From contig JBAZJH010000001.1 in assembly GCA_041651415.1 (NCBI GenBank), forward strand, positions 151,713-215,712: a DNA stretch of 64,000 bases, read 5' to 3'. Positions 1 to 19,112 of this stretch are shown here, in pieces (positions within the stretch are counted from its first letter, which is position 1; each line of letters opens with the position of its first letter). A model generated the notes under the pieces. That model worked only from the letters and a program-made list of their open reading frames with translations, was not told the DNA's origin and ran no database searches. Origin of the DNA: Minisyncoccota bacterium (GTDB taxonomy: Bacteria; Patescibacteriota; Minisyncoccia; UBA6257; XYB1-36-10). The position numbers and the translations under genes were made by a program.

Positions 1-2
1 AA

Positions 3-298
3 GTTAGGCAGTTTATAAACCAAGACATTCGGCCGGAGAGATTAGAGATATTAGAAGAGAGCGACACGGTTGGACTACAGGATATTTGGGACGCTATTTG
101 GGAATATAATAATGGGATATATAAAACTCTCTTAAAATCCTATCAGGACGATAAAAGCCAGGAACCGGAAGACCAAATCTTTTCCTCTCTTTTAAGGATT
201 CATAAAGAGGATGAGGACGGCCGGAAAGTTCGCCGAAATATAACAGACGCAAACGAGTTATCCGCTCATTCATTTATTTGTGGCGGATTTTTAACATG
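3..298 (+). CDS. Hypothetical protein, C-terminal fragment (5' end outside window); part of the integrated element
   Basis: Frame 3 is open from the window start to TGA at 296-298 (98 codons). No recognisable motifs. Confidence 0.3.
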
Positions 299-650
299 AA
301 AATTACTATCCCAAAAGAATACAGAGACCACTTTAAGGAAAATATAATTTATATAATGAGATTTTGGATGAAAGGCAAAAAGGTTCTGCTTTTGATGAAT
401 AAAGAAGAAAAGTGTAAGTTTTATAAAGCAATGGAAGAATAAGAGGAGAAACCGGAAAATCACGCTTTTTTCAGACTTGTAAAAGCAGGCGTTATAGAAA
501 CCGATATTGAGGTAATAAAGATGATAAGATAGATGTTATTGAGGCCTTTTGGAAGCATTTAGAGGGCAAAAAACGAGTACTTAAGAAGGATGATTGCCGG
601 GGGTTTATTTACTTTAATAAGACAGCATAAATCCTGGTATAATACAGGTA

Positions 651-1250
651 ATGAGAAGAGGTAGAGCATACAGATTAGGTATGATTGTAAAGAAAAATGG
701 CGTGAAGCAACGCAGTGATTTAACGCTAACTAAAGAAATCGCTACTACTTTAAGGGAAATGGTGTTGGCCGGCGAGAGTTTATATCAAAAAGGCGGTAAA
801 ATAAACCTTTTTTCAAAAGATGGAGAGAAAATAGCACTGTCAGTTGGAACGCTTAACGCATGGATTTTGAGGCGAAATATCGTGCCTGGTATTGGAGTTA
901 GCTTAAAGGATTATTTAGACAAGACGAGAGTTGAAAGAAGGGTAATAAAGATGAGAAAACAGCAAGAGGAGATGTGGGAGAAGGGACAGAATAATTTAGA
1001 GAAAGCATTAAGCATGCGTACTAATTTGCCGGTATTTAATAAGTTTGGGCAAGTGGTAAGAGATGAAGATGGAAATATTGTGCGGAGAGAAAATCCTAAC
1101 CTCTTGAAAATACAGTTAGATGCGGCGAAGTTTGTGTTGGAAAGGCTTAACTCGGAGAATTATGGGAAGAGAACAAAAATTAAAGACAAACATTTGGCGT
1201 TTTCATTGGCGGATTTTCGCCGGGAGGCAAAAAAGTATGAGGAGGAGTAA
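651..1250 (+). CDS. Hypothetical protein, element cargo; basic, probably nucleic-acid binding
   Basis: 199-aa ORF with no conserved catalytic motif recognised. Sits inside the integrase-bounded element. Confidence 0.45.
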   Translation: MRRGRAYRLGMIVKKNGVKQRSDLTLTKEIATTLREMVLAGESLYQKGGKINLFSKDGEKIALSVGTLNAWILRRNIVPGIGVSLKDYLDKTRVERRVIKMRKQQEEMWEKGQNNLEKALSMRTNLPVFNKFGQVVRDEDGNIVRRENPNLLKIQLDAAKFVLERLNSENYGKRTKIKDKHLAFSLADFRREAKKYEEE

Positions 1251-1614
1251 AAATAAAGTTTAGTAGATTAAGAAGTTATCCACCTAACAAAAATATATAA
1301 ATACTTTATAATTTAAGTGTAGTCGTAGCTACCCCAAAAGGAGTAGCTACATCCATTAGTTAGGCGTGGAACGGCGGTGCGGTTTAACCCTCTTGCCTTT
1401 CCTTACATAACTTCTTACGGGAACAATTTTTTGTTTTTGCTTCCCATAAGCAGATGTTTTTGTTTTTGCCATTTTATAAATAAAAATGGTTTTTAATACG
1501 ACCTTTAATGGCGTGTTTTACTCACGCCAAGTTGTCAAGCGATGTTGTAAAATACCCAAGTCGTATTTGCTATTTCCTAAATGAGATAGCTGCGACCATA
1601 CTCAAAGAACAGAA

Positions 1615-1650
1615 AACCTATAATTAAAGTAATTATAGGTTTTTATTTTA
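1615..1650 (+). terminator. Rho-independent terminator-like hairpin (AACCTATAATT-N5-AATTATAGGTT + T-run) inside a 480-nt noncoding stretch
   Basis: Perfect 11-bp stem followed by TTTTTATTTT. No CDS for about 360 nt upstream. Confidence 0.4.
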
Positions 1651-1734
1651 TAGCGTCAATAAAAGTGCGCTTTTTTAGCTTGAAATACTGCTTAAAAAAT
1701 GGGATAATTTGCTTGATTTAAGAATAAAAATGAT

Positions 1735-3522
1735 ATGAAAATGCTTTTCAAAGAGGCGGATTATAACTTGAACAGGTTGATTGAGAATATCAATGCCGGT
1801 GAAATTGGATTGCCTGATATTCAAAGGCCTTTTATTTGGAAAGATGTTAAGGTTAGAAACTTATTTGATAGTATGTATCGGGGTTATCCGATAGGATATT
1901 TGCTTTTTTGGGGAAACTTTCAACAGGAAAACACAAGAACGATAGGTAGTAACGAAGAAATGCATCGCCCCCCGCGTCTTTTAATTGTGGACGGCCAGCA
2001 ACGATTAACTTCTCTCTTCGCGGTCATAAAAGGAAAAGAAGTAGTGAGAGAAAATTATGAGAAAGAAAGAATAATAATCGCTTTTCATCCTTTAGAAGAA
2101 AAGTTTGAAGTGCCAGACGCGGCTATTAGAAATAATCCCGAATATATACAGGATATTTCTCTTATTTGGAATACGGAGAATATACATGGATTTATTACTA
2201 AACATATTAATAAGTTAAAAGAAGTAAGAGAGCTAACCAGTGAGGAGGAGAGTAAAATTGCTAATAATATAGGCAACTTACATGGTTTACTTCATTTTCA
2301 GTTTTCTGTCTTAGAAATTGACGCTACAGCTACAGAAGAAGAAGTGGCCGAGATATTTGTTCGTATCAATAGCGAAGGCAAACACTTAAAAGAGCCGGAC
2401 TTTATTTTGACTTTAATGTCGGTTTTTTGGGATGAGGGAAGGATGGAGTTAGAGAAGTTTTCTCGCGCTTCTCAAGTGCCTTCGGAAGGCATAGCTACGG
2501 CTTTTAACTATATTTTTCAACCAAAGCCAGACCAAGTGCTTAGGGTAGCTATTGGGCTGGGATTTAAGCGGGCACGAATGAAATACGCTTATAGTATTTT
2601 AAGAGGTAAAGACTTGAAAACGGAAAAGTTTAGCGAAGAACTACGAGTAGAGCAGTTTGAGGTGCTTAAAAACGCCCAGGACAAGGTTTTAGACCTTAAT
2701 AACTGGCACGAGTTCCTAAAGTCCTTAAAAGAAGCCGGATATACCCGCCAGGCGCTTGTTAGTTCAGCTTACAGTGTTATGTATTCCTATATTATATTTT
2801 TAATAGGAAAATATGAGTTTGAAGTTGAGCCGGCTGTTTTACGGAGATTAACTGCTCGTTGGTTTTTCTTTTCTTCTTTGACAGGGCGATATACGGGTTC
2901 AGCAGAAACCCAAATGGAAGAGGACTTAAATGCTATTGAAAAAGGGAAATCTCTTTATGGAGTATCTGAATATGGAACTATAAAAAATGGTGGAGAAACT
3001 TTAGAACAAATAATAAATCACATTATCGGAACAGAAATTACATCTGATTATTGGAGTATAACTTTACCGACCAGTGGGTTAGTTAGCGGTTCAGCACGCA
3101 GTCCGGCTATGCTTGCTTATTATGCCTCTCTAAATATTCTTGGCGCGAAGGTTCTTTTTTCTGACTTAACTACTATTCAGTTGATGGAAAATGGAGTAAC
3201 CGAAAAGCGTTCGGCTTTGGAAAGACATCATCTTTTCCCGCGAAAATATCTGAAGAAGATAGGAATTAAAGATTTTAATGAAATAAACCAGGTGGCTAAT
3301 TACGCTTTAATAGAGTGGGGAGATAATAATGATATAAGCGACCAATCTCCAAGTGAGTATTTGCCGATTTATTTGCCACGTCTTGGAGAGGATAAGGAAA
3401 AATGTTATTACTGGCATGCTTTGCCGGAGAATTGGGAACAGATGGAATACTCAAAGTTTTTAGAGGAACGCCGCAAGAAAATGGCGGTGGTTATAAAGGA
3501 CGCTTTTGAGAAATTAAAATAA
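1735..3522 (+). CDS. GmrSD-family type IV (modification-dependent) restriction endonuclease, DUF262 (ParB-like NTPase) + DUF1524 (His-Me/HNH-like nuclease)
   Basis: N-terminal IGLPDIQRPFIW...YRGYPIGYLLFW and the DGQQRLTSL motif are typical of DUF262. C-terminal ERHHLFPRKYL...NYALIEWGDNN region fits the DUF1524 His-Me finger. Confidence 0.7.
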   Translation: MKMLFKEADYNLNRLIENINAGEIGLPDIQRPFIWKDVKVRNLFDSMYRGYPIGYLLFWGNFQQENTRTIGSNEEMHRPPRLLIVDGQQRLTSLFAVIKGKEVVRENYEKERIIIAFHPLEEKFEVPDAAIRNNPEYIQDISLIWNTENIHGFITKHINKLKEVRELTSEEESKIANNIGNLHGLLHFQFSVLEIDATATEEEVAEIFVRINSEGKHLKEPDFILTLMSVFWDEGRMELEKFSRASQVPSEGIATAFNYIFQPKPDQVLRVAIGLGFKRARMKYAYSILRGKDLKTEKFSEELRVEQFEVLKNAQDKVLDLNNWHEFLKSLKEAGYTRQALVSSAYSVMYSYIIFLIGKYEFEVEPAVLRRLTARWFFFSSLTGRYTGSAETQMEEDLNAIEKGKSLYGVSEYGTIKNGGETLEQIINHIIGTEITSDYWSITLPTSGLVSGSARSPAMLAYYASLNILGAKVLFSDLTTIQLMENGVTEKRSALERHHLFPRKYLKKIGIKDFNEINQVANYALIEWGDNNDISDQSPSEYLPIYLPRLGEDKEKCYYWHALPENWEQMEYSKFLEERRKKMAVVIKDAFEKLK

Positions 3523-3527
3523 TTAAG

Positions 3528-4322
3528 ATGTATTTTAGTAAAAGAAATAATTATCAGATTGAGTATTCCGGGTATGAAGATGCATCACCTAATCTAAGGA
3601 AGCGACTGGCTTATGTCATAAATAAGTATCATGACGCTAATAATAATTTTATTTCTTCTGAAATGATTGCGTCTCTTGTGGATTTTGATGAGTTTCAACA
3701 TCAGGTTAAAAAGCATTTAGTTATAGATAACCCATTGGATGTTATAGACTATTACCCATTTAATATGGTTTTTGATGTGGTAGAGATATATTGGGATTTA
3801 GCAAAAGAAGTATCGTCAAAGATGGATATATATACAGAATTAAGACAAGTATTTATTTTATCTGGCTCAGTTTATCAAATTAATGGGGGGACAGGAAAAA
3901 TTGAATTAATCCCAGATGAAGAACTTGCTAAAAAAATAAATGAAACTCAAGAAGTATTTAGGGAGCAGTATGAGGTATACAAGTTATTTTCGGAAGCAGT
4001 AGGAAATCTTTTTAGCAGAAAAACAGAACCGAAAAATGTTGTAAGAGATATTTATATTGCTGCAGAAAAATATCTAAAAGCCGTGACTGGAGAAGCTCAA
4101 TATTCAAATGCTATTAAAAGAATAAATAAATCAAATATTATAAATAGTGAACAAAAATCAATAATGGAGAAACTTTATGCTTTTCGCTCTAATACACAGG
4201 GAACTTCTCATGCCGGCTCTTCTCCTGAACCAAATGAAAAGGATGCTGTATGGTTTTTGGATACTATGGCAGCACAATTAAGGAACATAGAAAAACAAAT
4301 AAAAGAAAAAAAGATTAGCTAA
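3528..4322 (+). CDS. Hypothetical protein; possible HEPN/Abi-like C-terminal R-x7-H motif (FRSNTQGTSHAG)
   Basis: 264-aa ORF starting 6 nt after the GmrSD stop, same strand. Only a weak motif-level resemblance to HEPN R-x(4-7)-H. Confidence 0.4.
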   Translation: MYFSKRNNYQIEYSGYEDASPNLRKRLAYVINKYHDANNNFISSEMIASLVDFDEFQHQVKKHLVIDNPLDVIDYYPFNMVFDVVEIYWDLAKEVSSKMDIYTELRQVFILSGSVYQINGGTGKIELIPDEELAKKINETQEVFREQYEVYKLFSEAVGNLFSRKTEPKNVVRDIYIAAEKYLKAVTGEAQYSNAIKRINKSNIINSEQKSIMEKLYAFRSNTQGTSHAGSSPEPNEKDAVWFLDTMAAQLRNIEKQIKEKKIS

Positions 4323-4323
4323 A

Positions 4324-4704
4324 ATGACAGAAGTAAATCAAAAAAGAATATGTCAAGAGTGTGGTAATGAGATGGTGGATGTTAATTATTGTAATTACTG
4401 CAATAAGAGAGTTATTAGCAATTTACATGTTTTTATATCAGAAAATATAGAGATAAGTGAGGCATATAAAGGAAAGGTGCGAGAAGGGCAGGTTGGAGAA
4501 GTAAAGCCACATTTTGAGTTTTCAGAAAAGGATGAAAAAAGTGGAGACTCGCGTTTGACTAAAGGAGTTCATATTTCAATAGCTATAGATAGAAAAAATA
4601 ATAAATATCGTCAAGTTGTTAAGGATAAAAGAACTGGAAAGATTTTACATAAAGAGAGTGAGCCACTCACAGAACATCGCTCTAAAAAATTAAATGATTT
4701 CTAA
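4324..4704 (+). CDS. Hypothetical zinc-ribbon protein (CxxC...CxxC at N-terminus)
   Basis: CQECGNEM...CNYCNKR zinc ribbon. Starts 2 nt after the previous stop. Confidence 0.4.
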   Translation: MTEVNQKRICQECGNEMVDVNYCNYCNKRVISNLHVFISENIEISEAYKGKVREGQVGEVKPHFEFSEKDEKSGDSRLTKGVHISIAIDRKNNKYRQVVKDKRTGKILHKESEPLTEHRSKKLNDF

Positions 4705-4906
4705 AAAAGAGTTAGAGAAATATAAAGCGATTTATAGGAAACACTACAGCAAGGAGATTTCCGACCAAGAAGCGCTGGAACAAGGCATAAAACTTATTCG
4801 TCTCATTGAGTTGGTTTATAAGCCGATAACTAAAGATGAATATAAGAAACTCCAAAAAAGAAGACGAGAAACAGGAGGAGTGGCAAAATGTAATTGGTTT
4901 TTTTGA
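4694..4906 (+). CDS. Hypothetical small protein (70 aa)
   Basis: ORF overlaps the upstream gene by 11 nt. Coiled-coil-like, basic C-terminus. Confidence 0.3.
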   Translation: MISKKELEKYKAIYRKHYSKEISDQEALEQGIKLIRLIELVYKPITKDEYKKLQKRRRETGGVAKCNWFF

Positions 4907-4953
4907 CTTATTGATTAAAGTAGATAGGCGAAATAATCCGCATTTATATAAAA

Positions 4954-5646
4954 ATGAAAATGAACTCAAAAGAGAAAATTGAATATATGCTTAATTTAAT
5001 TAGAGAAAAAGCAAAAATTAGCCCTCCAGGGCCTTTTTATATAAGGATAAATCCACTTTTAGATATTGGAAATAATAGAGGTATTCCTGATGAAGCACCG
5101 ATAGTTTTTTCTATTTCAGACCAGATTAGTATTTTAGAAAAGTTTGAAAAGGATGGTTTATTGTTTGGAGTTAATCTTGATGAGGATTATAAAGGGGGGT
5201 GGATTATTTTAGGAAGTTTAGATATAAATGGCGATGATAACCCTTATAACAAAACCGAAGTTGAGGGAATAGATGAAGTCGGCTCTGGTAAGGGAAAACC
5301 ATTCACATCTATCAAAGGAGGGGAGGGATATTTTCAATTTTATAAACAGGGAGAAAAGATACTTATAGGGAAAGAGGATACAAGACATTTTCGCTTACTT
5401 AGAGCTCTATCCGAACCACATTTTGGTGTTCAGAAAAATATTGAGGCTCTTTTTGAGGCAATAAAAACAACTAAAGATAAAAATGATAGTAGTTTATCAG
5501 ACTATTCTTCCCAAAGAGATAGTCGCATATTAGAGATTATTACTAATACTAAAAAAGAACTTCAGAAAAATAAGAAACTGCAAGGTAAGTTAAAGTATCG
5601 TTCTGATAATAAAAAAAGGACAATGTGGCTTGAATTAGAGGGTTAG
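4954..5646 (+). CDS. Hypothetical protein, element cargo
   Basis: 230-aa ORF, followed by the terminator at 5681-5711. Confidence 0.4.
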   Translation: MKMNSKEKIEYMLNLIREKAKISPPGPFYIRINPLLDIGNNRGIPDEAPIVFSISDQISILEKFEKDGLLFGVNLDEDYKGGWIILGSLDINGDDNPYNKTEVEGIDEVGSGKGKPFTSIKGGEGYFQFYKQGEKILIGKEDTRHFRLLRALSEPHFGVQKNIEALFEAIKTTKDKNDSSLSDYSSQRDSRILEIITNTKKELQKNKKLQGKLKYRSDNKKRTMWLELEG

Positions 5647-5680
5647 AGAGTAAAAAAACTAAGTTAGATTTCTTTAGTTT

Positions 5681-5711
5681 AGCGGGTTATGCAAAAACCC
5701 GCTTTTTTATT
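5681..5711 (+). terminator. Rho-independent terminator (AGCGGGTT-atgcaaa-AACCCGCT + T-run)
   Basis: 8-bp GC-rich stem plus TTTTTTAT, immediately downstream of the 4954-5646 gene. Confidence 0.6.
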
Positions 5712-5797
5712 ATCTAAAATCGTTATTGTTTTGTCTATTTTCCCTCTCGTTCCCTCTTTCTTTTTGGATATTAGAGGGATTGTTTCAATTAGGGCAA

Positions 5798-6052
5798 ATG
5801 ACAATGAAAAGGGAAAAAAGAATAAATAATTTCAAAACCGCAGACTTGGCGTTGGCTGCGGCGCTTTCTGTTGTCGGATTTCCGGTTGAGGAAATGGAGC
5901 AAATGGACGCGAGAAGGTTTGTATTCATATTTTCTGATAATCCAGAGCTCCAAAAAGAAATAAAGAAATACTGGCTGGGAGAACTAAAGGTCGTTCCGCA
6001 GACCTATTTCAACCAATTAAAAGTGTTGAAGGCGCGGATTTATGAGCGATAA
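5798..6052 (+). CDS. DUF5659-like small protein (phage/CPR-associated, function unknown)
   Basis: TADLALAAALSVVGFPV...DARRFVFIF...ELQKEIKKYWLGELKVVPQTYFNQLKVLKARIYER matches the DUF5659 pattern as I recall it (DLxLAAxL..GF...D.RR.vF.F...L...Y..GEL.V.P..FF...K.LK.RIY). Start chosen at the internal MTMKREK; the upstream extension looks spurious. Confidence 0.6.
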   Translation: MTMKREKRINNFKTADLALAAALSVVGFPVEEMEQMDARRFVFIFSDNPELQKEIKKYWLGELKVVPQTYFNQLKVLKARIYER

Positions 6053-6200
6053 AGCGTTATGGCGAGGAAAATAAACAAAGATATAGAAATAGAATATGAA
6101 CAAGCTCCGGTAACGCCGGAGAGTGTTGAAAAGTTAAATAGCATCTTTGACTTTATTTTTGAGCTGACGCTGAAGCGCGAATTAGAAAATAATAATAAAA

Positions 6201-7514
6201 ATGAAGATGAAAAATGTAATCAAAAAAGAATTAAATAAAAGGGGAATTATTTATAGAGATGAAAACAGCTTAATCTCTACTTATTGCCCATTTTGTCAGA
6301 ATGAAATGATTTGTCTTCGTATTAACGCTAATACGGGAGATGTTAGTTGTTTTTCTTGTAAAAAAGAAAAGGGTTGGGAAGAGTTTATAGCTAAACTGGA
6401 TGAGAATAAAAAGCAGGAAGAGATATTAAACAAAAAAAGCGTAGAATCAGAAGAAAATAAAAATCAGGAAAGAGAGATAGATAATAAAATGGTTGAGGAG
6501 TTTAAGAAAGAGACTGGTAATAAAGGTAAGTATATGTTTGAGGTTTTAACTGCAGGAGAAATTATTTCTCGCGAATATGAGAGTGAAAAATGGTTGATAA
6601 AAGATATTTTGCCTATGGAAGCGATGATGGTTATTTCCGCTCCGTCAGGAGGATTTAAGACTTTTCTTTCTCAATCTATAGCAATATCTATTTCAAGAGG
6701 CCTTCCGGTATTTGGGCATTATGAGACAATACAAACTCCGGTATTATTTATAGATGAGGAAAATAGCGGAGGAGTAATAAAAAAAAGATTATTATCTTTT
6801 GGTATTGATAAAAATGAGAATAAGATACATTACATAAGTCAGAAAAACTTTAAGGTAGATAAAGGAGATGGCGTAGAAGGAGTTTTAGAAATAGTAAGAG
6901 ATAAAAAAATTAAATTAATTATAATTGACTCATATATTCGTATTCATAGCGTAAGAGAAAATGATTCTTCGGAAATGGCTAAAGTGAGTGAAAAGTTGAG
7001 ATTATTTAGTAAGGCAGGTATAGCAGTTATCTTAATACACCATCATAAGAAAAGTAATGGCCATAACTGGGATAATATGGGAGATGATATTATGCGTGGC
7101 TCTTCAGATATTGCGGCTTCTGTAGATACCCACTTGATAATTAAATCAAATAAAAATAACAATTTTTTAACCCTGAAAGCTGGTAAGTTTAGATATTCTG
7201 CTCCTATTTCTGATGCGAAGATTGAAATAATAAAATCTGGTGAAGAAATAATAGAGTTTAGGTATGCAGGAGAAAGTAAAGAGAAAGCAGAAGAGAAATA
7301 TGATGAAGCAATAGAGGAAATAAGAAACTTATTTAATGATGAGGAAAAAAAGAGTAGAGAAGAAATACATAAAACTTTAAGGGAAGCCTTTGGTTTTGGG
7401 AGAGATGTTATTGATAGCGCTGTTAAAGAGGCCGTAAATAGAAAAATTATAGAAAGAGTAAAAAAGGAAGGTCAGAAAGGAAATAAGGCATTCTATCGTT
7501 TAATTGGCGACTAA
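6201..7514 (+). CDS. Replication protein: N-terminal primase-like zinc ribbon + RecA-like AAA_25 ATPase (RepA/primase-helicase-like) of the mobile element
   Basis: CPFCQNE...CFSCKK zinc finger. Walker A-like VISAPSGGFKTFLSQ with LFIDEEN (Walker B-like) and the IIDSYIRIH...ILIHHHKK pattern are typical of AAA_25/RepA-like proteins. Confidence 0.6.
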   Translation: MKMKNVIKKELNKRGIIYRDENSLISTYCPFCQNEMICLRINANTGDVSCFSCKKEKGWEEFIAKLDENKKQEEILNKKSVESEENKNQEREIDNKMVEEFKKETGNKGKYMFEVLTAGEIISREYESEKWLIKDILPMEAMMVISAPSGGFKTFLSQSIAISISRGLPVFGHYETIQTPVLFIDEENSGGVIKKRLLSFGIDKNENKIHYISQKNFKVDKGDGVEGVLEIVRDKKIKLIIIDSYIRIHSVRENDSSEMAKVSEKLRLFSKAGIAVILIHHHKKSNGHNWDNMGDDIMRGSSDIAASVDTHLIIKSNKNNNFLTLKAGKFRYSAPISDAKIEIIKSGEEIIEFRYAGESKEKAEEKYDEAIEEIRNLFNDEEKKSREEIHKTLREAFGFGRDVIDSAVKEAVNRKIIERVKKEGQKGNKAFYRLIGD

Positions 7515-7631
7515 TTTTAACTTCCTAACTTTCTAAACTATATATATGTCAGGAAACCAGGAAGTTATATTAAAAAAAGAAAAAAGTTTTCTACTGGACA
7601 ATTAGGAATAACTTGGAATATAATAAAGATA

Positions 7632-7808
7632 ATGAAATACTTTACTAAAGAAGAAATCGCAAAGGAGTTAATGGTTCACCCTAAAACAGTGGAAAGATGG
7701 CTTAAAAGGAGATTATTAAGAGGATATAAGTTAGGAGACGGTAAAACGGCGCTTTGGCGTATTCCCAAAGAAGAACTAAAAAGGTTTTTAGAAAAACATA
7801 AAAATTAA
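7632..7808 (+). CDS. Excisionase/MerR-like HTH DNA-binding protein (Xis-like), 58 aa
   Basis: ORF not in the supplied track (<60 aa). Translates to MKYFTKEEIAKELMVHPKTVERWLKRRLLRGYKLGDGKTALWRIPKEELKRFLEKHKN. Shows the KTV.RW...G.LP...G.RW..F helix-turn-helix pattern. Lies immediately upstream of the serine recombinase. Confidence 0.65.
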   Translation: MKYFTKEEIAKELMVHPKTVERWLKRRLLRGYKLGDGKTALWRIPKEELKRFLEKHKN

Positions 7809-7815
7809 AATAAAT

Positions 7816-9462
7816 ATGAAAGAAGAAATAAAAATTAAAAAGTTGGTGGCATTATACGCTCGTGTTTCTACCGAACGGCAGGAGGTGCAAAAAACAATTA
7901 AAACACAACTTTTAGCAATTAAGGATTTTGCTGAAAAGCAGGGTTACGCCATAGTTGAAAGATATATTGATAATGGTTGGAGTGGAGGTATTTTTGAGAG
8001 ACCGGAATTAGATAGGTTACGTCAGGATGCTCAAAGTAAAAAACGAGCATGGGAAGCGGTGATAATATACGACCCAGACCGTTTATCACGCATATATTCT
8101 CACCAGGCATTTTTGACTGAAGAGTTGCAGAAAAAAGTGGAGATTATTTTCATTACTATTTCTACACCTAAAAACGATGAGGATAAGATTTTGTATGGAG
8201 TAAGAGGATTATTCGCGGAATATGAGAGGATGAAAATAAAGGAGCGTTTTCGTTTAGGAAAGTTAAGAAAGGTAAAAGAGGGTCATATACTGACAACGGA
8301 AGCGCCTTTTGGTTATAATTATATAAAAAGGAATGAGAATGTGCATGGTTATTATAAAATTAACGAAAATGAAGCAAGAATTATTAGAGATGTTTTTCAT
8401 TGGGTAGCTGACGAAAAATTAACTCTCCGGGCAGTGGTAAGGAGATTAAAGGAAATGAATATAAAACCTCGCAAGAGTAAGAGGGGGGTATGGAATACAA
8501 CCACGCTTGGAACAATTTTAAGGAATAAAACTTATATTGGCGAAGCTCATTACGGAAAGTCGTATGCGGTAGAGCCGGAAAAGCCGTTAAAGCAGGAAAA
8601 ATATCGCAAGATTAGAAAAACAAGCAGAAAAATCAGACCGGAAGAAGAGTGGATAAAAATACCAGTGCCGGCAATAATTGATAGCTATTTATTTGAAAGA
8701 GTGGAAAGACAACTAAAAAATAATTATGAGCAATCAAAGAGAAATAGAAAAAATGATTATCTTTTAGCCGGAAAGATTTGGTGTTCGTGTGGGTGTAGGC
8801 GAGTGGGTGAGGGCGCTCAAAAAGGAAAACATTTGTATTATCGTTGCTCTGCAAGAAATCTTAATTTTCCCTTACCTGTGGAATGTAAAGAAAGAGGTAT
8901 TAACGCTAAAGTGGTTGATAGTAAGTTATGGGAACGAATGGTGAGGTTTATGAGTTCGCCTGAACTTCTACAAGAACAAGTAAACAGGTGGGGAAAAAGC
9001 AGAAAAAATAGGGTAAATGAGAGCGTAAAAGATAAAGAGATTGTTAAAAAGGAGGTTCTTAAACTTAAAGAAGAAAGAGAGCGTTATACGAAGGCCTACG
9101 GCGCGGGAGTGCTTACTTTAGAGCAACTGAAATGGAATAGTGATGAGATAGGGCAAAAGATTACTTCTTTAGAAAAAGAAATTACTGCATACGAGACGCA
9201 AGAAGGACAAACTGAAAAATTATCATTTCCAACAAAAGAAGAAATTGAAGTTTTTGCTAATAAAGCCAAAAACACTCTTAATAACTTGAACTTTGAAGAG
9301 AAAAGCCGCATAGTTAAGGACGCTATAGATAAAATAGTCGGTTATAAAGAAAAACTAAAAGTCATAGGAAAACTTCCTATCACTACATTAAATTATGTCG
9401 GGTTACAAACTATCAATGGGAATAGTGGGGTTGCCGAATGTGGGAAAGTCTACGCTTTTTAA
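7816..9462 (+). CDS. Large serine recombinase (serine integrase)
   Basis: N-terminal resolvase domain LYARVSTERQ with the catalytic Ser, followed by a recombinase domain and a Cys-rich zinc ribbon (CSCGCRR...YYRCSA) and a C-terminal coiled-coil. 548 aa. Confidence 0.9.
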   Translation: MKEEIKIKKLVALYARVSTERQEVQKTIKTQLLAIKDFAEKQGYAIVERYIDNGWSGGIFERPELDRLRQDAQSKKRAWEAVIIYDPDRLSRIYSHQAFLTEELQKKVEIIFITISTPKNDEDKILYGVRGLFAEYERMKIKERFRLGKLRKVKEGHILTTEAPFGYNYIKRNENVHGYYKINENEARIIRDVFHWVADEKLTLRAVVRRLKEMNIKPRKSKRGVWNTTTLGTILRNKTYIGEAHYGKSYAVEPEKPLKQEKYRKIRKTSRKIRPEEEWIKIPVPAIIDSYLFERVERQLKNNYEQSKRNRKNDYLLAGKIWCSCGCRRVGEGAQKGKHLYYRCSARNLNFPLPVECKERGINAKVVDSKLWERMVRFMSSPELLQEQVNRWGKSRKNRVNESVKDKEIVKKEVLKLKEERERYTKAYGAGVLTLEQLKWNSDEIGQKITSLEKEITAYETQEGQTEKLSFPTKEEIEVFANKAKNTLNNLNFEEKSRIVKDAIDKIVGYKEKLKVIGKLPITTLNYVGLQTINGNSGVAECGKVYAF

Positions 9463-10408
9463 GATTTTAACGAAACAAGATATTAATATCGCCAATTATC
9501 CGTTTGCGACTATAGACCCGAATGTGGGAGTTGTGGCAGTGCCGGATGAAAGATTGGAAAAATTAAATGAGCTGTCAAAAAGCGTTAAAAAAATTCCGGC
9601 AGTCGTGGAATTTTATGATATCGCGGGGCTTGTTAGGGGAGCAGGGAAAGGAGAGGGACTGGGAAATCAGTTTTTAGCGAATATCAGAGAGACAAACGCC
9701 ATAGTTCAGGTAGTCCGTGTTTTTCAAGGCGGGGAAATAATTCATGTGGAAGAAAGCGTCAATCCGGAAAGAGATATTGATATTATAAATTTGGAATTGA
9801 TATTTAAGGACTTGGAAACAGTGGAAAAAAGAATCGGGAGTTTGGAAAAAGAAGCGAGAGGAGACAAAAAGAAAGAAAAATCTTTGGCAATTATGAAAAA
9901 ACTGAAAGAAGAGCTTTTGGCCGATAAGCTGGCTAATTCGCTTTCGGAAGAAATAAAAGAAGAGCCGGCAGTCAAAGAATTAAATTTATTGACTTTAAAA
10001 CCGCAGATTTATTTATTGAACGGAAAAGAAGAAGACGTGGCGGAAAATTTAAAAGAAAAAATAAGGAAACTCGGAGCGGATTTTTTGATTTTTGATTTAG
10101 CGGAAGCGGAAGATGTAAACGAGCTGATAAAAAAATCGTATGAGGTTTTAGGATTAATCAGTTTCTTTACGACTGGAGTTGATGAAACGCGGGCTTGGAC
10201 AATAAGGAGGGGAGTGAAAGCACCGGAAGCGGCGGGAACTATCCATACGGATTTTGAAAAGAAATTTATCAGGGCGGAAGTGATAAATTGGCAGGAGCTT
10301 TTAAATATTGGCGGCTGGTCAGGCGCCAAACAAAAAGGCAAGCTTCGTTTGGAGGGGAAAGAGTATGTTTTTCAAGACGGGGATGTGACGGAAATCAGAC
10401 ATGGATAA
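9395..10408 (+). CDS. ychF: Ribosome-binding ATPase YchF (Obg-family GTPase)
   Basis: GIVGLPNVGKSTLF P-loop, NYPFATIDPNVGVV, and the C-terminal TGS-domain region. Alternative start at 9416 (MGIVGL). The first 68 nt overlap the integrase gene. Confidence 0.9.
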   Translation: MSGYKLSMGIVGLPNVGKSTLFKILTKQDINIANYPFATIDPNVGVVAVPDERLEKLNELSKSVKKIPAVVEFYDIAGLVRGAGKGEGLGNQFLANIRETNAIVQVVRVFQGGEIIHVEESVNPERDIDIINLELIFKDLETVEKRIGSLEKEARGDKKKEKSLAIMKKLKEELLADKLANSLSEEIKEEPAVKELNLLTLKPQIYLLNGKEEDVAENLKEKIRKLGADFLIFDLAEAEDVNELIKKSYEVLGLISFFTTGVDETRAWTIRRGVKAPEAAGTIHTDFEKKFIRAEVINWQELLNIGGWSGAKQKGKLRLEGKEYVFQDGDVTEIRHG

Positions 10409-10496
10409 TTTTATTGAAAATATTTGCTAAAAACGAATATGCAGAATAACTGAAATCTTCTGATGTTTCTTGTTGTCCAACTAGACACTAGCTATC

Positions 10497-11984
10497 CTAA
10501 ATTTTAAAAACATATTTGGCATCCTGCGGGATGCTTTTTTCTTTTTCCAGCAGAATATAAAAAATGTTTTTTTCTTTCTGCTTTTCCGGCGTGAAAGTGT
10601 CTGTGATAAACATTATCGTTTGTGAAGGCATAGGAATGCCTCTTACGAGAACGCCGTTATTTTCAACAATGACATATTTTTTTTCTTTTTGCGGGAGAGA
10701 GTTTATTATATTTCCGATTTCTGCGTAATCTGAAGAGAAAGCATCTTTGGTGTTTTTGTTATTAGCCCATTCGAAAAAATATCTTTGATAAGAATTTAAA
10801 ATAAGAAGAAGAAAGAAAACAAAAGCGAGAAAGAAGGATATTTTTCTAAAGACGGGAGAAAATTCTTTAAGTTTGCGAAAGATAAATTCGCCTCCGATAG
10901 CGGAAAAAATAAAAACAGACGGCGCCATAAGAATGGCGCGAAGAGCGTGCGGCAGGCCTTCGCTTGAGACAATAACCGGCAAGGAAGCGAGAATAAACCA
11001 AGAAAAAATAATAGAGAAGGGAAATCGGCTTTGGACTCCCGATTTATTAAACGGCGGGCAAGAAGCAATAAAATGGAAAATAGAAATGAACAGTCCGATT
11101 AGAAAAAGAATGCCGATTGGCCAGTAAAGGAGCGGAGAGCCGGAAAAATTGTGGCGCCAATTAAAATCGCCGACAAAGTTAAACATACCGAAAGTTTTCA
11201 ACACATTTTCTGTTAATAATTTTGTCGGAGAAGCGGAGGTGAAAATGGAAACTTGAGAAGTTCTTCCTAAAAAATCCTGCGGGTTGTTCAAAAAATAAAT
11301 TCCGAGCGGCGCGGCGAGAAGAATCGTGAAAAAAATAAAAACCAAAGTGAATTTCCAAAACTGCCGATTTTTATAAAAGAAAGGAATAAAAAGAAGAAAA
11401 AGAAGGGGAAGAACGCGATAGGCGATATAAGAATAAAATCCCAGACCGAAAAAGATGCCTCCTAAAGCAGAGAGAAAATAAGCTTTCCTTCTGGCGTTTT
11501 CCGGAAGCTGAACCGCTTTTAAGAAAAAATAAAGGGCAAAAACGGCAAAAAAAGGAGCTATGATGGCTCGAAAGCCGATACGGGAAAAATTGATATGCCA
11601 GAAACTTATCGCCATAAAAAAAGAAGAAAGAAGAGCGATGGTTTCCTTCTCATGCCTGTTTTTTTTTATGAGAAGTTCTTTAACGAGAAGATAAAGCCCG
11701 AGAACGGTTAAGATTCCAAAAATGGCGGAAGGCAGGCGGAGAGTTTCTGCGGTATTTGGAAGAAGCTTAAGAAATCCAGCTTGAATATTGATGAATAATC
11801 CTTCGCGGCCGTTATTTTCGGGATAAAAGATTTTATAATCGCCTGTGGCGTTAGCTTCTAGGGCATTATTGCCGTTCATAGCTTCATCGGGATAAAGCCC
11901 GGGAGGAGTTTCGGAAAGATTATAGAGGCGGAAAAAGGAAGCGACAATAATTATTAAAAAAAGAAGGAAGTATCTATTTTTCAT
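10497..11984 (-). CDS. Polytopic membrane glycosyltransferase, GT39/GT83 (ArnT/PMT-like)
   Basis: N-terminal TM helix followed by a ...PGLYPDEAMNG... loop, then more than 10 predicted TM helices. 495 aa. Confidence 0.6.
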   Translation of the reverse strand: MKNRYFLLFLIIIVASFFRLYNLSETPPGLYPDEAMNGNNALEANATGDYKIFYPENNGREGLFINIQAGFLKLLPNTAETLRLPSAIFGILTVLGLYLLVKELLIKKNRHEKETIALLSSFFMAISFWHINFSRIGFRAIIAPFFAVFALYFFLKAVQLPENARRKAYFLSALGGIFFGLGFYSYIAYRVLPLLFLLFIPFFYKNRQFWKFTLVFIFFTILLAAPLGIYFLNNPQDFLGRTSQVSIFTSASPTKLLTENVLKTFGMFNFVGDFNWRHNFSGSPLLYWPIGILFLIGLFISIFHFIASCPPFNKSGVQSRFPFSIIFSWFILASLPVIVSSEGLPHALRAILMAPSVFIFSAIGGEFIFRKLKEFSPVFRKISFFLAFVFFLLLILNSYQRYFFEWANNKNTKDAFSSDYAEIGNIINSLPQKEKKYVIVENNGVLVRGIPMPSQTIMFITDTFTPEKQKEKNIFYILLEKEKSIPQDAKYVFKI

Positions 11985-13241: not shown

Positions 13242-13889
13242 ATGGAAGATAAAAAATTAATCTCAAACATTTTAGCGTTACATAAAAAAACATATAATGA
13301 ACTTGCAAAAGAGTATGAGAGTAGAGCTGAAAGTTTGTTTGATGTTACCAGAAACGCAATGGATAACTTTTCTTTTTTTATTAAGTCGAAAGGATTGATT
13401 TTGGATGTCGGATGCGGAGTTGGTGTTGCTATGAATATCCTTGCGAAGAAAGGTTTTAAATTAATCGGACTAGATTTATCACAAAAAATGATTGATTTTG
13501 CCAAGAAAAGAAATCCTGGAATAAAGATAATTAAAGGAGATTTTTTAAAAACGGAATTTGATGAAAAATTTGACGCAATTTTAACTTTTGCTTTCATTCA
13601 TTTATTTCCTAAATCGGAAGTTCCAAAGATATTTGATAAGATAAAATCAATTTTAAAACCTGGCGGAGTTGCATTAATCAGCTCAACGGAAAAATTTGAA
13701 AGTAAAGAAGGCATATCCATTAAAGAAGGCTATAATATAAAACTCAAGCGTTTCAGAAAATCCTGGACAGAGCAGGAACTTAGAGAGTCGATATCACAAT
13801 CAGGTTTTAGAGAGCTGGCTTTTAAAAAATATTCTGATCCTTTTAATAAAATATGGATGGATTTTATAGTACAATTTAAAATAAAATAA
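13242..13889 (+). CDS. Class I SAM-dependent methyltransferase
   Basis: Motif I LDVGCGVGV...GFKLIGLDLS. Confidence 0.75.
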   Translation: MEDKKLISNILALHKKTYNELAKEYESRAESLFDVTRNAMDNFSFFIKSKGLILDVGCGVGVAMNILAKKGFKLIGLDLSQKMIDFAKKRNPGIKIIKGDFLKTEFDEKFDAILTFAFIHLFPKSEVPKIFDKIKSILKPGGVALISSTEKFESKEGISIKEGYNIKLKRFRKSWTEQELRESISQSGFRELAFKKYSDPFNKIWMDFIVQFKIK

Positions 13890-15212: not shown

Positions 15213-15582
15213 TTAGCCAGTTATCATTAAGCCGGATTCTGTTTCGCCCGGAGGCGAAAGCAGCAATTTATCTGCTCTGGTCTTTGCAGACCGGAGTCAA
15301 GCGGCACAAACCAACATAAAATGTTGGAATACGGCCTTGCACCAGACAGGGCTTGCCAAACCGATATTTCGCAATATCGGCCCGTGAGCTCTTACCTCGC
15401 GATTTCAACCTTACTCCGACCTAAGTCGGAGCGGTGTATTTTCTGTTGTGCTTTCCGTGGAATCGCTTCCCGTCGCCGTTAGCGACTGTCTAGAACCGCT
15501 TCGCCAAATGGCGGATAGCGATTAGTGTCCGGACTTTCCTCTCCGACCTTAAGTCGGAGTAGCTGCTTTTCAAACTAGCTTT
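15213..15582 (-). ncRNA. rnpB: RNase P RNA (bacterial type)
   Basis: On the minus strand: the P4 5' strand GGAGAGGAAAGUCCGGAC (revcomp of 15523-15540), the P4 3' strand ACAGAAUCCGGCUUA (revcomp of 15226-15240), a GGUAAGAGCUCAC module, the P3 hairpin CUCCGACUUAAGGUCGGAG, and P1 pairing AGCUAGUU/AACUGGCU. About 370 nt. Confidence 0.85.
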
Positions 15583-17443: not shown

Positions 17444-19112
17444 TTATAATAAAAAAGAGATGAAAACCAGATTCGCTTTAATAATTTTTTCTTTCACTCT
17501 TTTTTATCTGATTCTCGTTTTTAATTTATATACAATACAAGTTAAAAAAGGGGATCTTTATACGGCAAGAGCCGAGTCGCAAATTTCTTCAAAAGATTTA
17601 ACGGCGGCAAGAGGCAGTATTTATTTTTCCGACAAAGACGGCAATTTTATTCCGGCGGCGATAGAAAAAAAATATTACGAAATTTATGCCGTGCCGACAG
17701 AGATAGAGGACGCGGCGGAAGCGGCGGAAACGCTTTCGCCGGTTTTTGACATAGAAAAAGAGGAATTACTAAGAATGTTCAGCAAAGAAAAAGACCAGTA
17801 TGAACTTTTAAAAAGCAGAGTGGCGGAAGAAGATTTGGCGTCTTACTCCGAAGCGGAAAATGTGAAAGGAATATATAAAAAAGCCGAGCCGAGCCGATTT
17901 TATCCTTTAGAGAAAATCGGAGCGCATATTTTGGGGTATACAAGTTTTGATGAAGAAACTTCCATGCTTTCGGGAAAATACGGAGCGGAGTCTTATTTTA
18001 ACGAATTATTATCGGGAGAAAACGGAGGGGCGGAAGGAGACAAAACAAAGAGGCCGATAGCCGGAGAAGATTTATTTTTAACCATAGACAGAAATATCCA
18101 ATATCAGGCGGAAGAAATTTTGGAGAAATTAGTCAGTAACTATAAAGGAAAGAGCGGAAGTGTTTTAGTGGAAGACCCGAAAACCGGAAGAATTTTAGCC
18201 ATGGCAAGCATTCCCAGTTTTGACCCGAACAGCTATTCAAAATATCCGATAGAAAATTTTTTGAATCCGAGCGTCCAATCAATTTATGAACCGGGTTCAA
18301 TTTTTAAAATTTTTACCATGGCGGCGGGGCTGGACAGCGGAGCGGTAACGCCGGAAACAACTTATTACGATTCAGGAGAGGTGAAAATGAACGGACGGAC
18401 GATAAAAAATTGGGATTTGAAAGCGCATGGCACGCAAACGATGACAAATGTGATTGAGCAGTCTTTGAATACGGGAATGGTTTTTGTGGAAAAACAAATC
18501 GGGCATTCCAAATTTTTGGAATATATGAACACTTTCGGCTTTGACGAGAAAACCGAAATAACTTTGCCGGGAGAAGTGGCGGGGACCTTTGGAAATTTGG
18601 AAAAAAATCCGCAGGACATAAATTTTGCGACAGCTTCTTTCGGGCAAGGAGTTTCTCTGACGCCAATCGGACTTTTGCGGGGAGTGTCGGCAATCGCGAA
18701 TGGCGGAGTTTTAATCAAACCGACTGTAAACGCAAGAGACGGAATAAAAGAAGAGGGAGCGGCGGTTGGAAAAGACGCGGCGAAAAAAATAACAGAGATG
18801 ATGGTTTCAGCAGTGGAAAAAGCTCAAGTCGCGGCGATTTCCGGTTATAACGTGGCGGGAAAAACCGGAACGGCCCAAGTGCCTAATTTTAAAAAGGGAG
18901 GATATACGGACGAAGTGATAAACACTTATTCGGGATTCGCTCCGGCTTTTGACCCGAGATTCGTTATTTTGATAAAACTGGACGAACCGGTCGGAGCGCC
19001 GCTTGCCGGACAAACCGTGGTGCCGGCTTTTCGCGAACTGGCGGAATTCATTTTAAATTATTATAATATTCCGCCGGACAAAGAAACGGAGAAAAATAAA
19101 ACAAATGATTAG
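17424..19112 (+). CDS. ftsI: Peptidoglycan D,D-transpeptidase FtsI / PBP2-class penicillin-binding protein
   Basis: N-terminal TM, PBP dimerisation domain, SxxK (SIFK), and KTGT motifs. Confidence 0.85.
   Translation: MFTREISYNKKEMKTRFALIIFSFTLFYLILVFNLYTIQVKKGDLYTARAESQISSKDLTAARGSIYFSDKDGNFIPAAIEKKYYEIYAVPTEIEDAAEAAETLSPVFDIEKEELLRMFSKEKDQYELLKSRVAEEDLASYSEAENVKGIYKKAEPSRFYPLEKIGAHILGYTSFDEETSMLSGKYGAESYFNELLSGENGGAEGDKTKRPIAGEDLFLTIDRNIQYQAEEILEKLVSNYKGKSGSVLVEDPKTGRILAMASIPSFDPNSYSKYPIENFLNPSVQSIYEPGSIFKIFTMAAGLDSGAVTPETTYYDSGEVKMNGRTIKNWDLKAHGTQTMTNVIEQSLNTGMVFVEKQIGHSKFLEYMNTFGFDEKTEITLPGEVAGTFGNLEKNPQDINFATASFGQGVSLTPIGLLRGVSAIANGGVLIKPTVNARDGIKEEGAAVGKDAAKKITEMMVSAVEKAQVAAISGYNVAGKTGTAQVPNFKKGGYTDEVINTYSGFAPAFDPRFVILIKLDEPVGAPLAGQTVVPAFRELAEFILNYYNIPPDKETEKNKTND

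Follow-up and report, generated by a model that had tools for sequence, protein, structure and literature searches.

We analyzed a 64,000-nt stretch of a Minisyncoccota genome (a metagenome-assembled genome of Candidatus Paceibacterota; GenBank assembly GCA_041651415.1, contig JBAZJH010000001.1, positions 151,713 to 215,712 of the forward strand; hereafter, the window), in which the 3' end of a gene for a large serine recombinase (LSR) overlaps the 5' end of the GTPase gene ychF. Our analysis indicates that this overlap very probably marks the right-hand junction (attR) of an integrative element, non-phage and 14,750 bp long, that sits in the 5' coding end of ychF. The reconstructed sites place the attachment site of the element (attP) inside the LSR's own 3' coding region and the attachment site of the host (attB) at the start of ychF, with conserved P-loop codons serving as the host half-site B'. 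We hold this architecture with high confidence and put forward its regulatory consequences as hypotheses.

The LSR gene in its attR form (7816-9462, + strand) encodes 548 amino acids and ends, by the sequence and by the list of open reading frames (ORFs), in NYVGLQTINGNSGVAECGKVYAF and a stop codon. Its product matched the Pfam families Resolvase (residues 11-157, E value = 1.5e-28), Recombinase (E value = 7.8e-19), and Zn_ribbon_recom (E value = 6.1e-07). The catalytic Ser18 of the YARVS motif was invariant in 39 relatives in the family alignment, where the four cysteines of the zinc ribbon were also invariant. The product has the resolvase, recombinase, and zinc-ribbon domains of a large serine recombinase, with the coiled coil seen in the model of a relative, and is one. 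The ychF gene (9395-10408, + strand) is a chimeric but intact ORF of 337 amino acids, beginning as now read with MSGYKLSMGIVGLPNVGKSTLFK, and matched MMR_HSR1 (E value = 5.5e-19), YchF-GTPase_C (E value = 1.8e-35), and TGS (E value = 0.0024). The G1 motif GxxGxPNxGKS is present as GIVGLPNVGKS at residues 9-19; together with the G domain and the C-terminal YchF/TGS domain, it identifies the target gene as that of the YchF/OLA1 GTPase. The two genes share 68 nt (9395-9462) and are read in frames offset from each other by one base. One public annotation of this DNA begins ychF at an internal ATG at 9416; the ATG at 9395 is the start conserved in the family, and in most loci its position relative to the crossover is -24.

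Next, we looked into how widely this arrangement recurs. One genome per species was scanned with the family alignment, which gave 80 loci with LSR relatives of ~50 to 57% identity; more than 1,000 LSR homologues exist at ~55% identity, mostly in Patescibacteria, and the LSR was intact in all loci examined. At 63 of the 80 loci, ychF lay directly 3' of the LSR in the same relative frame, and the exact 68-nt overlap was found in 35 of these 63. Because the same offset recurs downstream of the LSR in so many relatives, the overlap is evidently not a product of chance. Four further loci ended at a contig edge yet carried LSR tails in the ychF frame, and the remaining 13 came from taxa outside the Candidate Phyla Radiation (CPR), among them Bradyrhizobium, Limisphaerales, and Bacteroidota, and had a native tail and no ychF. 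The C-termini of the 120 best database homologues likewise formed two classes: about 100 ended like ...NYVxFKTIHRNCGVAECGEVHAF, a tail that after the R is an out-of-frame reading of GIVGLPNVGKSTLF (that is, of the GIVGLPNVGK codons), and 15 or 16 carried a conserved native tail, ...RHG.NTTRH....IPFEF.I.LP.... These results indicate that an attP within the gene, paired with ychF, is the design shared by most of the CPR LSRs in this very large family. In IMG/VR, we found no LSR relative above about 32% identity (hits, ~30%).

The attR core occupies 9395-9444 of the window. Its first 24 nt form the P arm, the half-site derived from the element (ATGTCGGGTTACAAACTATCAATG; 9395-9418, + strand), for which an alignment of 64 attR junctions gave a consensus. 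The P arm encodes Y527 to N534 and the first base of the G535 codon in the LSR frame and codons 1 to 8 (MSGYKLSM) in the ychF frame, and the ATGTC at its outer edge is the mirror image of GACAT in the P' arm. The crossover dinucleotide GG follows (9419-9420, + strand), as nucleotides 2 and 3 of the LSR G535 codon and as nucleotides 1 and 2 of the Gly codon that comes ahead of IVGLPNVGKS in ychF. Beyond it lies the B' arm, the half-site derived from the host (AATAGTGGGGTTGCCGAATGTGGG; 9421-9444, + strand; consensus over 64 loci). In ychF, this arm holds the third base of Gly9 and then the P-loop codons IVGLPNVG, and in the LSR frame, it reads NSGVAECG; the same class of B'-arm sequence is also present in ychF genes that are free of the element.

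The left junction (attL) lies 5.3 kb upstream of the window, in the extended sequence of the same contig (L001, in which the coordinate is the window coordinate + 9350). We located it by searching six-frame translations with a hidden Markov model (HMM) of the native LSR tails and then reading the DNA directly. The HMM matched at ~4009-4102 of L001 on the + strand, beside an orphaned ychF start, and the attL GG is at L001 4019-4020 (window coordinate -5331/-5330). The DNA of L001 4004-4158 reads ATG AAA CTC TCA ATG GG through the crossover and C ATT GTC GGG ACA CAA TCG GAC AT... after it, so that attL across the crossover is ATGAAACTCTCAATG-GG-CATTGTCGGGACACAATCGGACAT.... Read in the ychF frame, it gives the host MKLSMG(IVG) and afterwards nonsense; read in the LSR frame, the tail continues as GHCRDTIGHYYYQAEVKVVPFSFSIKIPSSLKRGVDYGFRRKQVYR up to a stop codon and agrees with the native tail down to the GVDYGF motif seen in the Bradyrhizobium homologue. 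We read attL as the host's orphaned ychF start joined to the displaced 45-aa tail of the LSR. Neither tblastn nor a motif search of the whole window found an LSR-tail remnant inside it, because attL lies outside the window. A left boundary in the divergent intergenic region at L001 7555-7795, which holds an ORF with a TRH-like motif, was considered and dropped, the tail HMM having placed attL at ~4009-4102; a crossover joined at "AAT" in that region was also rejected, as the reconstructed ychF gained a stop codon.

Junctions of the same kind were found 5.6 to 14.7 kb upstream of the LSR, on the + strand, in 23 ychF-type loci. Each consisted of a host ATG with 2 to 6 codons (to the codon before the crossover Gly), GG, the P' arm, and a tail ORF, and this displaced ORF was intact in 23/23 (33 to 53 aa). 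Intact displaced tails fit a need to rebuild the full-length LSR on excision; recent insertion is the other possibility. One of the elements with a proper attL (at 2375, locus L043) holds a second, decayed LSR-tail remnant about 1 kb further inside (3291-3554; ...HSGNTARPTATPVLIPFNFKITLPAPRYERLITNRDEQGRILHSVSP), which may be the trace of an earlier or tandem insertion.

Both junctions were recovered in 22 loci, which allowed us to compare the arms. The attR consensus over 64 loci was tATGTC..gttcaaaaCTa.C.ATc GG aAT.GT.GG.cTgCC.AAtGT.GG.AAa, and the attL pattern was host upstream DNA, ATG with 2 to 6 codons, and GG cAt.G..tGaACACAAcccGACAT. The GG was invariant in 63/63 attR and in all 23 attL found, and it was the sole adjacent position pair identical between attL and attR in 22/22 pairs. 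When one arm was reverse-complemented, P and P' agreed at 12.9 of 24 positions and B and B' at 7.1 of 24, with the outer ATGTC/GACAT of P and P' nearly invariant. The reconstructed attP is thus a 50-bp site of 24 nt, GG, and 24 nt, with imperfect inverted-repeat arms and the GG as its center of symmetry. For this element, the predicted attP is ...GGGTTACAAACTATCAATG-GG-CATTGTCGGGACACAATCGG..., of which IMG/VR held no exact match, and the predicted attB is ...TTAGAATATGAAACTCTCAATG-GG-AATAGTGGGGTTGCCGAATG.... The features of serine-integrase sites are all here: an attP of ~50 bp, a less symmetric attB, a 2-bp crossover, and no long repeats. We found no meaningful direct or inverted repeats around the LSR (window 1-10500), which is expected because serine-integrase sites share only a 2-bp core. 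The LSR also has an attP within the integrase gene in the sense defined for other integrases (PMC6070905, PMC4383910).

We then asked whether empty sites and free forms of the family could be found. Metagenomes scanned with a degenerate version of the ychF start expected at attB (MKLSMGIVGLPNVGK) yielded five distinct element-free ychF genes that start with MKLSMGIVGLPNVGKS and have unrelated upstream DNA; no LSR was present in the recovered flank, which ran from 0.15 to 8 kb upstream. In one of the five (L094; 75% YchF identity), the whole element segment is missing and host synteny is kept (orf, PMT_2 at 54% identity, Pur_DNA_glyco at 58%, and ychF); a 541-aa ORF convergent to ychF stands where this genome has PMT, a match judged by position. 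Furthermore, an 8,445-nt scaffold (L100; ENA GROS21-1_SAMEA9560778_METAG-scaffold_3790) has a 16-nt terminal overlap, and the ORF of an excisionase-family HTH_17 protein closes across its ends. Its full-length LSR (586 aa) contains tATGTCGAGTCACTCCCTCTCCATC-GG-CATGGAGTGAACACAACCCAACAT, an intact attP of the CPR type with a P arm that gives MSSHSLSIG in the ychF frame, and its other genes encode an HTH_36 protein and an IstB-like ATPase. This scaffold is apparently the free circular form of a family member; among the contigs with a full-length LSR, L096 to L099 had no terminal overlap and only L100 closed. Recombination of attP with attB by the LSR is predicted, and the products seen are attL, attR, one circular attP form, and empty attB sites.

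The histories of the recombinase and of its target also differed. Pairwise identities of LSR and YchF were uncorrelated (Spearman 0.07, 51 loci), one pair of loci (L014 and L022) had LSRs 98% identical beside YchF proteins 69% identical, and the cargo genes were unique to each element, with HTH_17 conserved. These comparisons indicate that the LSR and YchF phylogenies are decoupled and that the family elements move between hosts.

The earlier note on this DNA, made from its letters alone, had read the overlap as an insertion at the very 5' end of ychF, with the element rebuilding the start codon and the P-loop region. Its coordinates and peptides were correct, and the 68-nt overlap and one-base frame shift were confirmed. 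Integration at that position is borne out by the left junction with its host start, by the 22 attL/attR pairs of other genomes, and by the syntenic empty site, and the attachment site, which the note had confined to about 70 bp, resolves to the attR core with its GG. The note had also expected a replacement N-terminus from the element; YchF now begins MSGYKLSMG where the host had MKLSMG, and an in-frame ATG was present in the P arm of 61 of the 63 ychF loci (GTG in the other two). For the promoter that it presumed the element to bring, the site upstream of HTH_17 described below is the candidate. It had named as contrary evidence a shared upstream sequence in element-free orthologues, and theirs is unrelated. 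The element does not, on the other hand, rebuild the P-loop, which lies downstream of the crossover; IVGLPNVGKS is host DNA that the integrase reads out of frame. The insertion reading stood, and what it overlooked was the reciprocal half, in which an attP within the integrase gene costs the enzyme its own conserved C-terminal tail of 45 aa.

By this reconstruction, integration would swap the last 45 aa of the LSR (...VPFSFSIKIP..GVDYGF) for 13 aa of out-of-frame ychF. Residues 1 to 535 are encoded by the element and the last 13 (NSGVAECGKVYAF) by host ychF, so that the integrated LSR has 548 aa and the excised LSR is predicted to have 580 (residues 1 to 535 and HCRDTIGHYYYQAEVKVVPFSFSIKIPSSLKRGVDYGFRRKQVYR). 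The usual stop of the integrated form is a TAA from the conserved Phe-Lys/Asn codons TTT AAx; other host codons give shorter or longer tails, with stops 20 to 167 nt after the GG. An AlphaFold model of a full-length relative (P0088; mean predicted local distance difference test score [pLDDT], 76.5) resembled the solved LSR-att complexes 9dxf, 9rah, 9iu2, and 4kis (Foldseek E values from 6e-22 to 5e-15) at sequence identities to solved LSRs of only 14 to 19%. In the model, long helices (367-506) stand between the zinc-ribbon strands, the attP-encoded residues (~530-546) form a low-confidence linker (pLDDT <50) after the zinc-ribbon hairpin (strands 507-524), and IIPFEFRIK after the linker is a confident strand in a block with a pLDDT of ~88. 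The attP is thus predicted to fall in a flexible linker stretch of the LSR, and a C-terminal beta-strand module would be part of the 580-aa form and missing from the 548-aa form.

The excised and integrated states would in this way make two integrase isoforms, and the change may bias the direction of recombination or stabilize integration, as in phage Mx8; control of directionality by the tail swap is a hypothesis. For example, the full-length form could be proficient for integration and the truncated form locked, or dependent for excision on HTH_17, which would act as directionality factor. This 58-aa protein of the excisionase family (7632-7808, + strand; Pfam HTH_17, 6.4e-12; phrog_66, "excisionase and transcriptional regulator") is encoded directly 5' of the LSR in at least 47 of the 80 loci, mostly at 50 to 72% identity, and in the circular scaffold as well, and it is a candidate recombination directionality factor (RDF) or regulator.

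The swap might instead be a neutral by-product, with attP in a dispensable linker since the elements are compact, both forms of the LSR behaving alike, and a separate factor setting direction. In well-studied LSRs, direction is indeed set by a separate RDF, and the conserved excisionase-like gene beside the LSR would suit that role here. The predicted disorder of the attP-encoded segment fits neutrality too, and the variable length and sequence of the host-encoded replacement tails suggest an absence of selection on the new tail. Against it, the tail that is displaced has a motif kept across phyla (IPFxFxIxLP) and a confident predicted strand, its ORF is unbroken at each of the 23 attL junctions, and the equivalent change in Mx8 alters integrase behavior (PMC6070905). 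We give a neutral swap a real chance, somewhat short of even. The fuller proposal, in which the integrase senses its own topological state through the attP in its gene, makes isoforms that differ in directionality or stability, and also takes over ychF, is offered tentatively and may well not hold.

For ychF, integration would mean the loss of its own promoter, ATG, and MKLSM and the gain of the element's ATG and MSGYKLSM, with the gene staying intact. The ATG that the element supplies belongs to the ATGTC recognition motif. The native promoter region of ychF now lies at a distance of 14.7 kb, and a consensus scan found a promoter-like site upstream of HTH_17 (TGGACA-18-TATAAT, 11/12 matches; 7595-7624, + strand). 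On the + strand, the scan found nothing of similar strength in the final 1.1 kb of the LSR gene, and no terminator-like site stands between the LSR and ychF. Cotranscription of HTH_17, LSR, and ychF is likely because a single strong promoter-like site lies upstream and no terminator-like site intervenes, and ychF is probably transcribed from the element via this site. Its expression would then be tied to the integrase operon, and with both the transcription and the translation start of YchF taken over, so would host fitness; the conserved P-loop target would give the element a broad host range.

Such dependence of ychF on transcription from the element, if real, is also what one would see if the LSR and ychF formed a domesticated, vertically inherited CPR operon in which the recombinase serves the host as a switch on ychF. 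The ychF-fused state of about 100 of the 120 best homologues and the intact LSR in all loci examined are compatible with this, and an element upstream of ychF in Streptococcus pneumoniae acts as an expression switch (PMC6375853). However, LSR and YchF divergence is uncorrelated, with near-identical LSRs beside YchF proteins of 69% identity, a syntenic relative has an empty site, the cargo is different in every element, the orphaned host ychF starts at attL mark discrete insertions, and a circular copy exists. Domestication is already largely refuted by these observations, and we regard it as improbable. Simple adjacency in a compact genome, with no recombination site within the overlap, is refuted and keeps next to no chance: gene overlaps are common in small genomes and flanking direct repeats are missing, but repeats are not expected of LSR sites that share only a 2-bp core, the overlap, frame, and GG recur in 63 loci, an orphaned ychF start joined to an LSR tail occurs in 23, and the DNA upstream of element-free ychF is unrelated.

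Several observations weigh against integration of the element at ychF through an attP in the LSR gene, or against what we derive from it. The position of the crossover comes from symmetry and invariance rather than from an attB/attP pair of the same strain. For this species, the exact empty site was not recovered, the metagenome scan returning other species only, and neither was the exact circle of its element. The promoter is one that we infer from a consensus match only, CPR promoters being poorly known, and the LSR tail could be dispensable. Moreover, the 13 non-CPR LSR genes, full-length and chromosomal, hold the P-GG-P' palindrome intact (L009, L012, L024, L028, L037, L039, L041, L053, L055, L069, L076, L079, and L081), several of them on Mb-scale chromosomal contigs without ychF nearby. 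A paralogue check found no second LSR near the genes in these 13 loci that could explain the intact sites, which means that the in-gene site goes unused in some cases or that these copies stand in another context.

Some loci of the family had features of their own. The Bradyrhizobium locus (L012) has a frameshifted LSR tail and, 8.7 kb upstream, a separate decayed tail remnant. Nemorincola caseinilytica JCM 32105 (L081) carries two attL-type cassettes 3' of its intact LSR (13594-13760 and 17657-17755), each with a host-like ATGTCACTTAGTATA-GG (MSLSIG) and then a different LSR tail, and between them lie defense genes (Gabija-like, AAA_15/OLD-TOPRIM and UvrD) and TraG-like genes. One LSR homologue (P0034, 648 aa, JGI) runs on in frame at its C-terminus into YchF-like sequence (...VVRIFEDDNIIHVHGAD), which is probably a frameshift or an assembly artifact. 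The metagenome-assembled genome (MAG) ELA641 has two different LSR loci on contigs 15 and 16 (L034 and L040), each abutting a ychF start. In MAG SRP170004_co1_269, which holds L031 and L059, ychF is present at L059, and L031 ends at a contig edge and has the ychF-frame tail only. Two LSR loci in one MAG could reflect strain mixtures or two copies of ychF.

Compared with known systems, the LSR has the same domain order and fold as the integrases of PhiC31, Bxb1, A118/LI, and TP901-1 and SprA of SPbeta. These phage systems likewise have a ~50-bp attP with inverted half-sites, a non-palindromic 2-bp crossover, a less symmetric attB, no long repeats, and a small accessory gene beside int. To our knowledge, attP lies outside the integrase ORF in the PhiC31, Bxb1, A118, TP901-1, and SPbeta systems, and integration usually disrupts or abuts the target gene. 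In contrast, attP here is in the ORF, the integrase C-terminus is altered, and insertion repairs the 5' end of the target gene. In the integration-dependent immunity of mycobacteriophages, reportedly described by Broussard et al. in 2013, attP is said to lie inside the repressor gene, with a tyrosine integrase and state-specific C-terminal isoforms; the gene crossed by attP is there the repressor and here the serine integrase itself.

Closer in architecture are the Mx8 integrases IntP/IntX and SSV1-type integrases, in which attP is within the int coding sequence, as in this LSR. The SSV1 integrase targets tRNA genes. Both are tyrosine recombinases that use identity segments (attB1/attB2 in Mx8), whereas our element has a serine recombinase, a 2-bp core, a target at the 5' end of a protein gene, and a reciprocal swap of the N-terminus; no Pfam match to Phage_integrase, the tyrosine recombinase family, was found in this LSR, which resembles Mx8 and SSV1 in architecture and is not a member of their class. 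In Mx8, integration recombines int so that its 3' end is replaced, and activity is modified and not destroyed (PMC6070905); the in-gene attP sites of Mx8 and SSV are likewise noted elsewhere (PMC4383910). In tRNA and tmRNA islands with tyrosine integrases, a copy in the element regenerates the target end, and a leftover piece of the gene sits at the far junction (PMC4383910). The regenerated end is there the 3' end of an RNA gene, restored through a long identity block, and here the 5' end of a protein gene, restored with a different peptide (MSGYKLSM vs MKLSM).

Two other elements have been linked to ychF. Pipolins with LSRs in Actinomycetota carry defense genes, and ychF is reported as their integration site from gene context (PMC11551731). 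They are defined by a primer-independent PolB (PMC11551731) and occur in another host phylum, whereas no PolB domain was found among the genes of our element in the Pfam list and scans; the sections consulted describe no in-gene attP, crossover, or ORF swap, and the likeness to this LSR family is one of description. In S. pneumoniae, a defective prophage lies between dnaN and ychF with int beside ychF; its integration and excision alter the ychF promoter, it lowers ychF expression, and the case has been called "active lysogeny" (PMC6375853). The prophage sits in the promoter with a 14-bp direct repeat, leaves the ychF coding sequence untouched, and swaps no ORF, and it is unrelated to our element. 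Within the searchable literature, which most subscription journals lie outside, no CPR integrase at ychF and no serine integrase with an attP in its ORF was described.

The right-hand 9.4 kb of the element fills positions 1-9418 of the window (+ strand), the left junction being outside it, and the family elements with an attL span 5.6 to 14.7 kb. All genes 5' of the LSR within this part are on the + strand, and besides HTH_17 and several orphans, they comprise a GmrSD-type (DUF262) restriction/defense gene (1735-3522; Pfam GmrSD_N, 1.4e-32; PADLOC HEC-05, 4.1e-33), an AbiJ-like abortive-infection gene (3528-4322; Pfam AbiJ_NTD4, 1.4e-08; PADLOC PDC-S32, 1.3e-13), a gene for a semi-conserved 84-aa DUF5659 protein (5798-6052; Pfam DUF5659, 1.3e-12), with homologues 5' of the LSR in 18/80 loci, and the gene of an AAA_25 ATPase (6201-7514; Pfam AAA_25, 1.9e-25). 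This ATPase is primase/helicase-like by its matches to PHROGs DNA polymerase/primase and primase families; it has a weak CHC2 zinc finger (Zn_ribbon_DnaG, 0.0039, below the Pfam cutoff) and is likely a replication protein of the excised circle. Neither Pfam nor PHROGs matched any phage structural or packaging gene in the element, and the capsid, terminase, tail, and lysis genes of a temperate phage were not among its genes. Upstream of the window, a radical SAM/SPASM protein is encoded inside the element (L001 4808-6118, - strand; PADLOC pVip, 4.4e-15, a weak viperin similarity), adjoining three orphan genes; it is possibly further defense cargo beside the GmrSD and AbiJ-like genes. A 484-nt noncoding gap within the element (window 1251-1734) contains a hairpin, GTAGCTAC...GTAGCTAC, at about 1322-1350, and an Rfam scan gave no family at the gathering threshold in this gap or in or near the junction. 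The ordinary host features of the window include a class A RNase P RNA (15213-15578, - strand; 188.9 bits) and tRNA genes for Glu-CTC (20372), Gly-CCC (40057), Thr-CGT (40850), and Gln-CTG (46187), all on the + strand and none adjoining the element.

The element offers a natural case of an enzyme that differs between its free and integrated states, which bears on how the direction of serine integrases is controlled; a built-in device for directionality or retention, if true, has not yet been described for them. It also shows how an element can insert into a near-universal coding motif, the YchF P-loop, without killing the gene, by carrying a substitute start codon within its recognition motif, and this would account for a wide range of hosts within Patescibacteria. 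The family provides natural sets of integrase, attP, and attB by the dozen, with GG as the core throughout, and a defined landing site in organisms for which genetic tools are few; if the reading is true, the HTH_17-LSR-attP module and the near-universal ychF site could serve as a tool for integration in CPR. For annotation, the analysis identifies a common class of small defense-gene carriers in CPR genomes, in which odd integrase C-termini and variable YchF N-termini would be products of the junctions and not errors.

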